This document shows positions 4,640 to 15,888 of a DNA stretch of 46,125 nt, one piece after another. Source of the DNA: Escherichia coli (GTDB taxonomy: Bacteria; Pseudomonadota; Gammaproteobacteria; Enterobacterales; Enterobacteriaceae); assembly GCF_965641715.1 (NCBI RefSeq), contig NZ_OZ282456.1; one strand, written 5' to 3'. The notes beneath the pieces were generated by a model. That model saw nothing but the letters and a program-made list of their open reading frames with translations, did no database searches and was not told the DNA's origin. Every line of letters begins with the position of its first letter. Position 1 is the first letter of the stretch. The position numbers and the translations under genes are program-made.

Positions 4640-5782
4640 TTATGGTCTGCTTTTCTGTGCCAGCTTATCAGCACATGTTTTTATCAGATCCTGTAGTGTC
4701 CTGGCTGGCAGGTTTGCATCCAGTACGCTGAGTATGCTGTTGTGATCTGCTTGGTCTACTACTTTGCCTGTCGGTGGTAGTAGCTTGAGCTGAGGATTCA
4801 GGTTTTCGTCAAAGCTGATAAGTGCTCTGGCGTTTCTGAGCAGATCAAGAAGTAAGGCTGATATCACATTTTCCTGAGTCATTGCTGGCAGATTTAGCGC
4901 CGCTTTGGTTTTCCCTGTTGCCTTGTCAAACTCCTTGATTAGTTCCTTCCTATAGTTCGGTTCCGTTAATAGCCGATTATGCTCTGTTGCCGCGCGGATA
5001 ATCGTTTTTTCCTGGTACAGTCGTTTAGCCAGATCGCGCTCGTACTGTGTTTTTAACACGCTGCTGATAGCGTTAAAGGCTTCAATGTAGGCTAGCTTGA
5101 TATCCTTCACGCCTGGACCGTCGATACTTTCCATGAGCAAGGTAAATCCGTCTTTTGTCATGCGATAGATTGTTATTTCGCGGTCGCTTCCTTCCAACGG
5201 TCGTTGCTCTTTAAAGAAATGACGCGCCGCAGCTGTGCGAGGAATGCGTAACGCATCGATGGCCATAACGATGGAATTGTTTGTGGTGCTGAATGCCTGG
5301 GCTACATCGGCTGAGGTTGTGAGTGGCTCGTTGTTGCACACCTTAACGTAATACATTGGTTTGGCGTTGAGCGTATCGACAACCTCACGAGCATTGTTTG
5401 GCGAGACGGTAACGGTCGCGGCCGTTTGCGCGTTCTGGTTGAAATAGCAGTCTTCCAGTTTTTCGAACACATCCCAAGCCTGATCGGTTTCGAGCATTTT
5501 GGCGTGACGGGCTGCTCCGTGTTCGGTCCAGAGAATTAGGGAGCGGGCATTTTTACCAACTAACCCGATTGTTTCAGGTCTGTTCTTGAACTCGCGTAAT
5601 TCGTTTTTTTCAATTTTAAAGTAATGCTTTCCGGCTATGAATCGCGTCGTGTTGTTCAGAAAGTTATCAGAAATGTTTTTGATTTTTGTTCCGTATAACT
5701 GCGCCAGAAGTTCAGTTGTAATAACGGGGATCTGGTTATGCAAGATAGGCTGTAGGGTGTTAACGGTCGGAAGCGTTTTCAT
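4640..5782 (-). CDS. Phage antirepressor (Ant-like)
   Basis: 380-aa ORF; N-terminal region with ILWTEHGAARHAKMLETDQAWDVFEKLEDCYF resembles antirepressor N-terminal domains and the C-terminal part resembles KilA-C-type domains, by recall. Confidence 0.55.
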   Translation of the reverse strand: MKTLPTVNTLQPILHNQIPVITTELLAQLYGTKIKNISDNFLNNTTRFIAGKHYFKIEKNELREFKNRPETIGLVGKNARSLILWTEHGAARHAKMLETDQAWDVFEKLEDCYFNQNAQTAATVTVSPNNAREVVDTLNAKPMYYVKVCNNEPLTTSADVAQAFSTTNNSIVMAIDALRIPRTAAARHFFKEQRPLEGSDREITIYRMTKDGFTLLMESIDGPGVKDIKLAYIEAFNAISSVLKTQYERDLAKRLYQEKTIIRAATEHNRLLTEPNYRKELIKEFDKATGKTKAALNLPAMTQENVISALLLDLLRNARALISFDENLNPQLKLLPPTGKVVDQADHNSILSVLDANLPARTLQDLIKTCADKLAQKSRP

Positions 5783-5970
5783 TTTGCACCTCCCATAACT
5801 ACTTTGGTTACGAGGGAGATTTTTGCGTCAGAAACAGCGTTATCGTTGCTGGCGATGCGCATAGCTTCGCGCTCGATTATTTCAGCCAGGCGGAATTTAT
5901 CGGCGTATGAGGCTTTCTTGAGAAGGATCTTTACGAGGTTGACGTAATAGTCATGGGGTAAGTTTGTCAT
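5779..5970 (-). CDS. Small hypothetical protein co-transcribed with the antirepressor
   Basis: Internal ATG at 5970 has GGAG 8 nt upstream; stop overlaps the antirepressor start; the track start at 6006 has no SD. Confidence 0.4.
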   Translation of the reverse strand: MTNLPHDYYVNLVKILLKKASYADKFRLAEIIEREAMRIASNDNAVSDAKISLVTKVVMGGAK

Positions 5971-6130
5971 TGTGATATCTCCAATATATGGAACTATCAC
6001 CGCCATTCGAGGCTAATCAAATGGTGGTGAGCCGTACAGGGTTAGCCTTACCGGACACAATGACGAACCGGCGCGGATTTCTCCGCCCCTGTACGACCCA
6101 CCATAATTTGGGCGTAACAGTGCTCTACGC

Positions 6131-6157
6131 ATAAAAAAACCGCTAACGCGGTATGCG
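6131..6157 (-). terminator. Candidate intrinsic terminator (minus strand) in the antirepressor leader
   Basis: ACCGC-TAAC-GCGGT hairpin with a 7-A run on the plus strand (T7 on the minus strand). Confidence 0.35.
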
Positions 6158-6298
6158 CCATCGTGTTATTCAGGAGGCTAATCCCGACCGTAGATTTTGC
6201 TACGGCTCGGAAAGTGTCCACCAATGGCGCATTCATGTCAATACGGCGGGATTTTAACAGAGACAACCACATAGCGTGGGTTTATTGGTAGGCAGAAA

Positions 6299-6333
6299 CA
6301 AAAAAACCGCCCTATTGAGGACGGTTCTTTTGT
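6299..6333 (-). terminator. Intrinsic terminator (minus strand, possibly bidirectional) in the antirepressor leader
   Basis: 8-bp stem ACCGCCCT/AGGACGGT with one G-U pair, loop ATTG, flanked by an A-run on one side and TCTTTTGTG on the other. Confidence 0.5.
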
Positions 6334-6715
6334 GCTGATCGGATTCGCGGTCCTTTCAGCATAACGTCGTTGTGTAAACAACCACGCAAGCACAAGCGGC
6401 GTATCTATTCTTACTCAACTGAGGTGAATAGTCCACTATTCATATAAAGAAATTTAGTTCCTTAGTTCATGCAGAATGAAGTTTTTTAACTTCTTCGGAT
6501 GTAATTACATGTAATAAAAGCAATTGTTATTCCTTCATTATGAAGGCGAGGACGTGTAATATGGCTTGGGGCCTTTTCGCCGATTCGCACCCGGGCACCG
6601 ACTTTAAGGAAAGGATCATCCACTTGCCGTACACGCAAGCACAAGCGGAGTGCTTGCTCTCGCGTCATTTTCGTCGGTGGAGATGCCGTGAAACGGCCTG
6701 TAAGGGCCACACAAT

Positions 6716-6836
6716 GAAAAAATACTGTATGTGTATTTTTATCGTTGTTACTGGAGCTTTGTTTACGCCACATGGGGAGGGTTGGAAGATTACTGATAAC
6801 GCTCTGAATGTGACGATAAACATTAGCAGCAAGTAG
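6716..6836 (+). CDS. Candidate small hydrophobic peptide (40 aa)
   Basis: MKKYCMCIFIVVTGALFTPHGEGWKITDNALNVTINISSK; AAGGG upstream of the ATG; terminator immediately downstream. Confidence 0.2.
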
Positions 6837-6841
6837 CGATT

Positions 6842-6864
6842 AGGCCCCTTCGGGGGCCTTTTTT
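6842..6864 (+). terminator. Rho-independent terminator
   Basis: AGGCCCC-TTCG-GGGGCCT hairpin followed by TTTTTT. Confidence 0.55.
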
Positions 6865-6921
6865 ACTGCAACCTGCATTTGATAGCTGTTTACCATTGCA
6901 GTAGCTTATATACCGTAAGAG

Positions 6922-6934
6922 CCACAAGATGTGG
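6922..6934. promoter_or_regulatory. Operator-like inverted repeat CCAC-AAGAT-GTGG
   Basis: Same ACCAC-N5-GTGGT architecture as the three sites between the repressor and cro-like genes. Confidence 0.35.
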
Positions 6935-7012
6935 TTACGATTTCAATACGGGGTTGATATGAAAAAGCGGTATGACGAATTTGATGGTTTCTAAGAGACG
7001 TTGACCTCTAAT

Positions 7013-7037
7013 GAGGCGGGTTGGTTGCCCGCCTTTT
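7013..7037 (+). terminator. Rho-independent terminator
   Basis: GGCGGG-TTGGTTG-CCCGCC hairpin followed by TTTTTT. Confidence 0.5.
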
Positions 7038-8824: not shown

Positions 8825-9481
8825 TCATAACCAGTTGACAACACTAACTACGCGGCCCAGAACTTTATAACGCTTAAATTCCTCGTTATTCAGATGCTTA
8901 GTGTTCATTTCAGCATCCCTTTCGGTTGACAGCATAACAGCATTGTCACCCGGTATGACTCTACAGTGCCTCAAAACAACCAGGCCATTTCTGTCTTCAA
9001 GGGCATAGATCCCCTCATGAATCTCTGTATCGTCTGTATTAATCAGGACTTGGGAGCCAGGGGATATTGTTGGTGACATTAACTCATCGTTGCTCTGGAG
9101 AACTGACAGAGACGATGGGTTGATGTTCTTGCTTCGTAGAATCTCCTGTTCTATCGCCAGCACTGGCTTTTCTCCGGCGTGCGATGCTATGTCATTTTTT
9201 ATAGCTACAAGCCCAGGAATAACAGGAGCGTTAGTATTCTGGGGTGGGAACGGGTTATCTGTTAAGCACGCGATATAAGGCGCTGATGCTTTCAGGGCGT
9301 GCGCGATTTTCTTGATGGCAGGTATCGATGGTTGTCTTAATCCGGCCTCATAGTTCTGCAAGGTGCTTAAGCCTATTCCAGTGACTTGCTGGAGATCTCC
9401 GGCAGTCATGCCGGATTGTTTCCGTAGAGTCTGAATGCGCAGACCTATTTCTTTCTTGATGTTCTCGTCGTTGCTTTTCAT
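8825..9481 (-). CDS. CI-like prophage repressor (HTH XRE domain plus S24 LexA-like peptidase domain)
   Basis: N-terminal HTH (LRKQSGMTAGDLQQVTGIGLSTLQNYEAG); C-terminal domain with the layout of self-cleaving CI/LexA repressors. Confidence 0.8.
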   Translation of the reverse strand: MKSNDENIKKEIGLRIQTLRKQSGMTAGDLQQVTGIGLSTLQNYEAGLRQPSIPAIKKIAHALKASAPYIACLTDNPFPPQNTNAPVIPGLVAIKNDIASHAGEKPVLAIEQEILRSKNINPSSLSVLQSNDELMSPTISPGSQVLINTDDTEIHEGIYALEDRNGLVVLRHCRVIPGDNAVMLSTERDAEMNTKHLNNEEFKRYKVLGRVVSVVNWL

Positions 9482-9518: not shown

Positions 9519-9636
9519 ACCACATTTAGTGGTTTTCACATGGTAAGACGAGAGGTGGACCACAAATAGAAGGTTATTTTTTGTTTCGCCCATTGAAAAA
9601 CCCACGATATGTGGTTTTAATACCACATATCGTGGT
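9519..9636. promoter_or_regulatory. Divergent immunity control region with three operators: ACCACATTTAGTGGT (9519-9533), CCACGATATGTGG (9602-9614), ACCACATATCGTGGT (9622-9636)
   Basis: Three copies of the 5-bp inverted repeat ACCAC/GTGGT with 5-bp spacer, plus a half-site at 9558-9566, between divergent repressor and cro-like genes. Confidence 0.55.
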
Positions 9637-15812: not shown

Positions 15813-15888
15813 GGCCCCTTAGCTCAGTGGTTAGAGCAGGCGACTCATAATCGCACGGTCATCGGTTCAAATCCGGTAGGGGCCACCA
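15813..15888 (+). tRNA. tRNA with CAT anticodon (Met by anticodon; sequence resembles the lysidine-type tRNA-Ile2)
   Basis: Manual cloverleaf: 7-bp acceptor stem GGCCCCT/AGGGGCC, D-arm GCTC-AGTGGTTA-GAGC, anticodon loop CTCATAA, T-loop GGTTCAAATCC, 3' CCA encoded. Confidence 0.8.

Follow-up and report, generated by a model that had tools for sequence, protein, structure and literature searches.

Two adjacent, probably RNA-regulated modules, a predicted immI-type antirepressor switch and a timPR-like toxin-antitoxin locus, upstream of the antirepressor operon of an Escherichia coli phage-plasmid

The antirepressor operon of a 46,125-nucleotide stretch of Escherichia coli DNA (RefSeq assembly GCF_965641715.1, contig NZ_OZ282456.1; hereinafter the window) is preceded by a long region that had been viewed, in an original prediction made from the sequence, as a single structured leader of about 900 bp. 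We are highly confident that the region 5960-6870 instead comprises two independent RNA-regulated modules, namely an antirepressor switch of the phage P1 immI type and a type I toxin-antitoxin (TA) module of the timPR type, both of which are previously unannotated members of kinds already described. By megablast, the whole window is the complete 46,125-bp E. coli plasmid pRHB38-C13_5 (CP055628.1, from pig faeces), in the annotation of which capsid, portal, tail-sheath, baseplate and holin genes sit alongside RepA and ParA; thus, the element is a phage-plasmid. When the window was scanned against Rfam at curated thresholds, three matches, each to a full model, fell inside the studied region: C4, which the original prediction had not identified, isrK and ryfA. 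All three are also present in each of the six close relatives that were scanned in the same way.

The antirepressor gene, ant (4640-5782, minus strand), encodes a protein of 380 amino acids (aa) with matches to the Pfam domains ORF6N (6e-20) and Phage_pRha (1.3e-11) and to the anti-repressor families of PHROG. Directly ahead of it on the same strand lies a 63-codon open reading frame (ORF), orf63 (5779-5970), which matches phrog_7886 over its full length (2.3e-47) and occupies the place of icd in P1 and of orf45 in Gifsy-1. Its AUG is at 5970→5968, its Shine-Dalgarno (SD) sequence, GGAG (5982→5979), is inside a hairpin, and its stop codon overlaps the ant start as ATGA (5782→5779), which suggests translational coupling. 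The orf63 start codon is kept in all relatives; the in-frame sequence upstream of it is not. The true antirepressor leader spans just 6279→5968 on the minus strand and reads, in the sense of the RNA, operator, promoter, IsrK with its terminator, a 24-nucleotide (nt) spacer, C4, the pairing site a2, the SD hairpin and the orf63 AUG. The 257-nt leader has a predicted fold of -101 kcal/mol, with z = -5.55 against shuffled sequence. The promoter/operator region of this isrK-C4-orf63-ant operon (6213-6279, minus strand) was recovered by the operator scan and is a near-invariant block in the relatives. It contains the operator CCACGCTATGTGG (6279→6267), a CCAC-N5-GTGG palindrome; a candidate extended -10 element, TGTTAAAAT (6259→6251), the -35 region of which would be covered by the operator; and a candidate promoter, TTGACA (6241→6236) and GACACT (6218→6213) spaced by 17 nt, which would put the transcription start at about 6206 (G6206), the same point as the start of the isrK model. 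These promoters were read by eye, and what backs such calls throughout this work is their fit with the 5' ends of the Rfam models and their conservation.

The C4 antisense RNA (6108→6020, minus strand) matches RF01695 with 70.8 bits (threshold, 45) over positions 1-87 of the 87 in the model. Its fold consists of a 17-bp outer stem and two hairpins and leaves two elements exposed, b' (UCAUUGUG, 6063→6056) in the loop of hairpin 2 and a' (AGGCUAA, 6048→6042) in the 3' junction. The CCA that follows the closing stem is compatible with processing by RNase P, as in P1. Upstream of C4 in the transcript, the IsrK-like or c4-a1b1 RNA (6206→6133, minus strand) matches the full RF01394 model with 65.7 bits (threshold, 50). 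Here a1 (UUAGCCU, 6181→6175) lies in the loop of hairpin 2 and is complementary to a', while b1 (CACGAUGG, 6165→6158) is single-stranded and pairs with b' via two G-U pairs. The RNA ends in an intrinsic terminator called by the terminator scanner (stem 6152→6139, then U7), which coincides with the 3' end of the isrK match; the minus-strand terminator that had been proposed at 6131-6157 is thus real. Two further sites lie downstream on the same strand: a2 (UUAGCCU, 6010-6016), immediately after C4 and again complementary to a', and b2 (UCACAAUGA..., 5962-5975), which lies over the orf63 start codon and is complementary to the C4 loop element b'. The complementarity between b' and the start-codon region extends to 12 of 13 nt (inverted repeat I2).

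Evidence for these pairings comes from their joint variation. A scan of viral contigs contributed ten more loci, which brought the set compared to 12 distinct leaders. Sequence similar to the leader, at ~70% identity, is present in about 300 phage records. Among these, the a-element occurs as three alleles (UUAGCCU/AGGCUAA, UUGGAAC/GUUCCAA and UUGGCGU/ACGCCAA) and the b-element likewise as three (CACAAUG, CACCAUG and CAUCAUG, each with a matching loop). The a- and b-alleles combine in five ways, and no leader has a copy of either element that disagrees with the other two. The a'-a1 and a'-a2 pairings are complete, with 7/7 pairs in 12/12 leaders, compared with an average of 4.7 for non-cognate combinations. 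Taking the C4 stems together with a1-a' and b1-b', 100% of 504 cells are paired and 10 pairs are changed on both sides; with the partners slid by 1-3 columns as a control, the paired fraction is 34-45%. Considered separately, a1-a' and b1-b' pair in 100% of cells, and 6 of their pairs have changed on both sides; the C4 stems are 100% paired, with compensatory changes; and b'-b2 is paired in 96.9% of cells, with 2 pairs changed on both sides. In four alignment rows, MAFFT had displaced a2 by 1-2 columns, and a'-a2 was therefore counted by anchored patterns. Comparison of the entire C4 with its flanks by RNAduplex, which ignores intramolecular structure, gave uninformative full-length duplexes and was replaced by element-wise pairing tables.

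In the Stx2 phage VT2-Sakai (L019:2483-2740), the a-allele UUGGCGU/ACGCCAA is the one also seen in some phage-plasmid relatives (L005, L006, L015 and L016), and the b-allele is different. Partial cross-talk between the RNAs of co-resident elements is conceivable.

From these elements a working scheme for the switch can be proposed. Minus-strand transcription would begin close to 6206, past the repressor operator, and the majority of transcripts would end at the IsrK terminator, yielding an IsrK/a1b1 RNA of ~74 nt. The read-through RNA would hold C4, the 63-codon ORF and ant, and C4, probably processed from it, would pair via a' with a2 and via b' with b2. Because b2 spans the orf63 start codon, C4 pairing would block the translation of orf63, and because the orf63 stop overlaps the ant start, ant would be blocked along with it; in P1 such a block then leads to Rho-dependent termination, and the same may hold in the window. 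The decoys a1 and b1 of IsrK, acting in cis or in trans, could occupy C4 and lift the block, as for the IsrK of Gifsy-1.

The proposed scheme merges two models, with C4 blocking the small ORF and ant, as in P1, and the IsrK decoy presumably freeing the target, as in Gifsy-1. In P1, ant is silenced through C1 repression of the c4-icd-ant operon, and the C4 RNA is required for full repression (PMC8198154). In Gifsy-1, some isrK transcripts pass the IsrK terminator into orf45-anrP, giving a read-through RNA that is translationally inactive and that is activated by short IsrK in trans; the properties of IsrK established by experiment include Hfq binding and trans-activation of antirepressor translation, and a stable RNA downstream of IsrK and complementary to it, STnc1160, was detected in Salmonella (PMC4825925). 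On the sequence evidence, the guess that the antirepressor is under RNA control of the P1 immI type is correct for the proximal 300 nt, with C4 and IsrK directly upstream of the small ORF and ant and with co-varying sites. The parallel to P22 that was drawn along with it finds no support: no Rfam match or conserved ORF of the kind expected for a P22-type sar RNA or for arc/mnt genes was found in 5970-6290, where the sense-strand IsrK and C4 fill the space.

Several points nevertheless weigh against the merged scheme. The action of IsrK in Gifsy-1 was explained by a structural switch in cis, and a trans-acting C4-like repressor was not established there (PMC4825925). In a permissive scan, the c4-a1b1 model (RF03163) scores 35.7 bits over the 5' half of IsrK in the window, below its threshold of 46.7, which is reached in VT2-Sakai (50.5 bits). 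The consensus promoter scanner called no promoter for any of the four RNAs considered in this work, the hexamers assigned by eye staying below its threshold. The structure tested for covariation was derived from the window sequence and is accordingly favoured over the slid controls, and the parallel change of both copies of a repeat could in principle come from gene conversion. The compensatory alleles in other genomes, however, do not depend on the choice of a window-derived structure. The first of these points leads to the alternative that the locus works in the manner of Gifsy-1 only, with the C4-matching segment acting purely in cis in an inactive mRNA fold that is opened by short IsrK in trans, and with no processed trans-acting C4. 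The Gifsy-1 experiments back such a cis switch between structures A and B, and a1/b1 would be able to pair with a'/b' inside one read-through RNA. Yet the covariation with a' and b' extends to a2 and b2, for which a cis switch made up of a1b1-a'b' alone has no need; compensatory changes maintain the C4 fold, long closing stem included; a stable RNA, STnc1160, is detected downstream of IsrK in Salmonella; and P1 needs C4 for full repression of ant. We therefore regard the purely cis-acting alternative as unlikely.

The second module begins beyond the leader and would be transcribed, in its larger part, from the opposite strand. The ryfA/timP mRNA (6567-6864, plus strand) matches RF00126 with 135.5 bits (threshold, 80) over positions 1-296 of the 296 in the model. 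The name ryfA is the earlier one of the timP mRNA, and TimP is a 38-aa toxic inner-membrane protein (PMC7667032). Of the elements described for the chromosomal mRNA, stem-loop (SL) 2 is the site of TimR binding, a 7-bp pseudoknot between SL1 and SL3 is needed for timP translation, and the SD sequence is sequestered in SL4 (PMC11228461). Comparison with that structure places the 7-bp SL1-SL3 pseudoknot arms of the window at CACCGAC (6596-6602) and GTCGGTG (6673-6679), one allele carrying a C→U change in an arm that leaves a G-U pair. SL2, with the TimR site, is a ryfA stem at 6632-6657, and the hairpin GCAAGCAC/GTGCTTGC (6635-6642/6650-6657), already noticed in the original prediction at the second copy of a repeat, is a stem in the Rfam ryfA alignment. 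The timP SD sequence, AAGGG (6702-6706), lies within a small GGCC/GGCC hairpin, and the mRNA ends in a terminator found by the terminator scan (6842-6859 plus a T-run). All of these elements are on the plus strand, as is the timP-like ORF itself (6714-6836), which encodes a 40-aa peptide, MKKYCMCIFIVVTGALFTPHGEGWKITDNALNVTINISSK, and is conserved in the relatives, contrary to the earlier impression that the stretch holds no convincing ORF. It is intact in every relative, with changes that are only in-frame; the farthest copy has an in-frame 3-nt deletion and conservative substitutions. The peptide is 36% identical to the TimP of E. coli EDL933 over 39 aa. A longer, 98-codon ORF (6540-6836) was rejected as a gene, since it merely prolongs timP upstream in frame, has its start ahead of the 5' end of the mRNA and is broken by 1-2-nt indels in relatives.

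The antitoxin component would be a divergently encoded small RNA (sRNA) resembling TimR. The TimR described from the chromosome is divergent from timP, and 18 nt at its 5' end are complementary to a part of the timP 5' untranslated region (UTR) that precedes the ribosome-binding site by more than 60 nt; every species examined has this complementary sequence upstream, on the other strand, with a terminator after it (PMC7667032). The repeat and terminator of the window have the same geometry. The candidate sRNA, of ~104 nt (6402→6299, minus strand), is predicted from its seed and target, its fold and its homology, with its 5' end placed by deduction. It ends in a long hairpin with U7 (6333→6299), so that the second minus-strand terminator of the original prediction, at 6299-6333, is likewise borne out; a 110-nt minus-strand RNA ending there has a fold z of -5.0, and the consensus terminator scanner did not list the site. 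A candidate timR promoter can be read as TGGACT (6435→6430) and AAGAAT (6412→6407) on the minus strand. The 17-nt direct repeat reported earlier, CACGCAAGCACAAGCGG, does occur in exactly two copies, a count reached by no shuffle, but at 6383-6399 and 6632-6648, 1-2 nt away from the positions first given (6382-6398 and 6634-6650), and it stretches to 20 nt with one mismatch (6383-6402/6632-6651). Judged by sequence, this direct repeat is the predicted TimR seed, as the reverse complement of 6383-6402, together with its target at 6632-6651 in timP SL2. In its body and terminator, the TimR-like RNA aligns with the sequence that precedes chromosomal timP in EDL933 (the timR region), and the EDL933 locus has its own 16-nt repeat of like kind. 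Predicted cognate duplexes reach about -36 kcal/mol, as against -18 to -19 for cross duplexes between plasmid and chromosome. Among 11 distinct versions of the module there are four seed alleles, in each of which the changes appear in both copies; the differences between the seed and target copies are G-U-compatible, save for one A-G mismatch in a single record (L017). Thus, the plus-strand timP mRNA would encode a 40-aa peptide resembling a membrane toxin, and the minus-strand TimR-like sRNA would pair by its 5' 17-20 nt with SL2 of the timP 5' UTR and prevent translation.

It could be objected that no active toxin-antitoxin pair exists, that the ryfA-like element serves as a regulatory sRNA or has decayed, and that the repeat was left behind by duplication or recombination. 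The peptide does match the NCBIfam family toxic_TimP (NF040796) over residues 1-40 of 40, but at E = 7e-5 and 23 bits, below the curated cut-off of 45; RyfA has been described as a regulatory sRNA in uropathogenic and avian pathogenic E. coli; and nothing is annotated at the element in any record inspected. Decay, however, is hard to reconcile with an ORF that stays intact in all relatives and accommodates an in-frame deletion and conservative substitutions in its most distant copy, or with the retention of the pseudoknot arms, the SD hairpin and SL2. The four allele groups, in which both repeat copies have changed and the remaining differences mostly preserve G-U pairing (apart from the A-G in L017), and the homology of the TimR body and terminator to chromosomal timR point the same way, and we give this objection little credence.

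Within the timR-timP divergent spacer, the palindrome AATAGTCCACTATT (6427-6440) is kept in all versions and overlaps the presumed timR -35; it may be a site for a regulator. The remaining spacer (6404-6566) occurs in two unrelated forms. In Rfam, the TimR region also resembles RNAI and Thr_leader weakly, and these sub-threshold matches were disregarded. Outside the phage-plasmid family and three Yersinia phages, where it is never annotated, no match to the timPR-like module was found at blastn sensitivity.

The independence of the two modules is seen in the relatives. In a Yersinia phage (L001) and in the plasmid of E. coli ATCC 25922 (L003), a plus-strand helix-turn-helix (HTH) gene of 0.7-0.8 kb stands at the junction corresponding to window positions 6283/6294 (insert at L001:6722-7261 and L003:3842-4414), between the ant operator and the TimR terminator, and both modules are undamaged despite this insertion. 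Since the relatives hold an HTH gene between two whole modules, the modules are independent. The rival interpretation, that the entire ~900 nt (6007-6940) is one minus-strand ant leader in which two attenuators, the repeat and a distal operator gate transcription, can point to the orientation of both terminators with the operon, to the lack of any conserved ORF of more than 40 codons and to the operator-type palindrome at 6922, but it is highly improbable: the isrK model starts at 6206, 7 nt after TTGACA-17-GACACT, so that the promoter block (6279-6213) leaves the 6299-6333 terminator upstream of the ant promoter, where attenuation of ant by it is impossible; 6567-6864 belongs to the ryfA/timP mRNA of the plus strand, and the stretch is not one transcription unit; and relatives that have the 0.7-0.8-kb gene at 6283/6294 and lack 6866-7030 keep both modules intact. 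Of the features once assigned to an ant leader, only the terminator at 6131-6157 belongs to it; the terminator at 6299-6333, the repeat and its hairpin are parts of the timPR-like module, and the 6922 operator is too far away. The terminator scan gives eight terminator-like sites in the region against 1.7 expected. What the sequences show is the family matches, the anatomy, the complementarity and the covariation; we infer the transcripts themselves, the processing of C4, repression and activation, toxicity and the positions of the promoters from the families to which these RNAs belong.

The repressor side of the circuit can be traced through a single motif. The window has 8 copies of CCAC-N5-GTGG where 0.44 would be expected, and all copies share the longer form AACCAC-N5-GTGGTT. 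The palindrome count places these eight 13-nt operator-like sites at 6267, 6922, 8769, 9520, 9602, 9623, 40913 and 45942. Three of them lie in the divergent region beside a CI/LexA-like repressor gene (8825-9481; 218 aa), one of these three falling in the spacer of a TTGAAA-17-TTTAAT promoter, and one is upstream of the gene block of a 124-aa protein and ParA. As judged from this distribution of sequences, the motif is very likely the operator of the main repressor, and its copy at 6267-6279 would be placed to control the ant operon, in parallel to the control of P1 immI by C1. The ACCAC-type operator of the original prediction, CCACAAGATGTGG, is found exactly at 6922-6934, outside the ant leader. 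At ~640 bp upstream of the ant promoter and past two terminators and the TA module, it is too distant to gate ant. A promoter for it was sought on both strands and none could be assigned; a TACGAT 1 nt after the operator mimics the geometry of a PR-like promoter at 9593-9621, but without a -35.

Among known systems, the antirepressor module is closest to the immI locus of P1 and P7 (c4-icd-ant1/2; RF01695, RF03163). In both, a C4 RNA lies within the leader of its own target operon, a' and b' pair upstream with a1 and b1 and downstream with a2 and b2, which lie where a small ORF that overlaps ant begins, and an operator of the main repressor is present at the operon promoter. The specificity alleles are comparable to the difference that reportedly separates P1 from P7. 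Unlike in P1, the repressor of the window is a CI/LexA-like HTH-S24 protein with CCAC-N5-GTGG operators rather than C1; the 63-aa ORF resembles no named family that we detected (phrog_7886) and is likened to icd by its position, not by a direct comparison with Icd; its Ant combines ORF6N and Rha domains; its a1b1 portion has an intrinsic terminator of its own, as IsrK does; and the element is a 46-kb phage-plasmid that encodes a contractile tail (sheath, tube and baseplate) and is not P1-like. With the isrK-orf45/STnc1160-anrP locus of Gifsy-1 (RF01394; PMC4825925), the module shares a short terminated IsrK with read-through into a small ORF and an antirepressor, the complementarity of IsrK to a downstream stable RNA, and a ribosome-binding site of the small ORF in a hairpin. 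The Stx2 phage VT2-Sakai has the same order (isrK/a1b1, C4, orf34 and ant), and the Salmonella phage ST64B has isrK followed by C4. The Gifsy-1 and Stx-phage loci differ in showing just ~70% identity to the window leader and in having annotated orf34 or orf45 genes that overlap C4, whereas the small ORF of the window begins downstream of it; also, no link to an antiterminator of the antQ type is evident in the window. The likeness to P22 immI (ant, sar, arc and mnt) is confined to the control of an antirepressor at both the RNA and the repressor level, the regulator of the window being a sense-strand leader RNA of the C4 family.

For the second module, the closest relative is the chromosomal timPR (ryfA/ryfB) locus of Salmonella and E. 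coli (PMC7667032, PMC11228461). The likeness takes in the full match to the ryfA covariance model, a divergent sRNA predicted to pair by its 5' end with SL2, which precedes the SD sequence by more than 60 nt, the 7-bp SL1-SL3 pseudoknot, the sequestered SD sequence, the homologous TimR body and terminator, and a peptide of ~40 aa with the motif MK..C.CI..IV.GAL. In contrast to the chromosomal locus, the module of the window is on a phage-plasmid and not between sseA and sseB, its peptide is just 36% identical and below the NCBIfam cut-off, its seed sequence is different, and within its family the seed comes in at least four alleles and the divergent promoter spacer in two unrelated versions.

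As a tentative extension, which we put forward as possible rather than probable, phage-plasmids may have recruited a mobile, specificity-diversified timPR beside their partition genes for post-segregational killing or an anti-phage role, with a seed orthogonal to that of chromosomal timPR, and the interchangeable a/b alleles may define RNA immunity types. If so, timPR would here be seen for the first time on a plasmid or phage, and the IsrK or C4 of a phage-plasmid could cross-talk with antirepressor control in co-resident Stx prophages through the a-allele UUGGCGU/ACGCCAA shared with VT2-Sakai. More immediately, four RNA genes and one small protein gene can be entered in ~1.3 kb that is blank in all database records of the phage-plasmid family. 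The RNA switch on which the firing of the antirepressor and the induction of the plasmid-prophage should depend is now located, with at least five specificity types, and a mobile, divergent timPR joins a TA family that, in the papers we found, was described only at the chromosomal locus.

About 60 kindred plasmids of 46-52 kb come from Escherichia and, in a few cases, from Klebsiella or Salmonella. One of them is the 48.5-kb plasmid of E. coli ATCC 25922, a reference strain, which makes the above predictions cheap to test; the phage-plasmid is akin to three Yersinia phages (vB_YpM_39, 41 and 44) as well. Every annotated record inspected leaves the stretch from the small ORF ahead of ant to the par genes without a feature.

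Some further observations concern the surroundings of the two modules. In two relatives (L005:3080-3367 and L006:1290-1577, equivalent to window 5779-6066), RefSeq annotates an "ash family protein" that is orf63 extended upstream over a2 and the 3' half of C4, and the Pfam Phage_ASH match (residues 2-39, E = 1.9e-5) lies almost wholly within the portion translated from the RNA gene. This call is probably spurious, and part of the Phage_ASH family may itself be translated RNA. The HTH gene at the 6283/6294 junction is carried by many relatives, that of ATCC 25922 included, and is absent from the window. The 165-bp segment 6866-7030, which contains the 6922 operator, is missing in some relatives and is flanked by GCCTTTTTTA repeats. 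It has no Rfam match and an unexceptional fold (z = -1.3), and it also includes an 11-codon ORF (6960-6995; MKKRYDEFDGF), with a plus-strand terminator at 7013-7035. Elsewhere in the window, a RelE/ParE-family toxin and an XRE-family partner are annotated at 2312-2958 (CP055628.1 22371-23017) in a higBA-like arrangement, as in the Yersinia phage, and the plasmid would thus have a type II TA system besides the type I timPR-like module. A tRNA-Met gene with anticodon CAT lies on the plus strand at 15813-15888.

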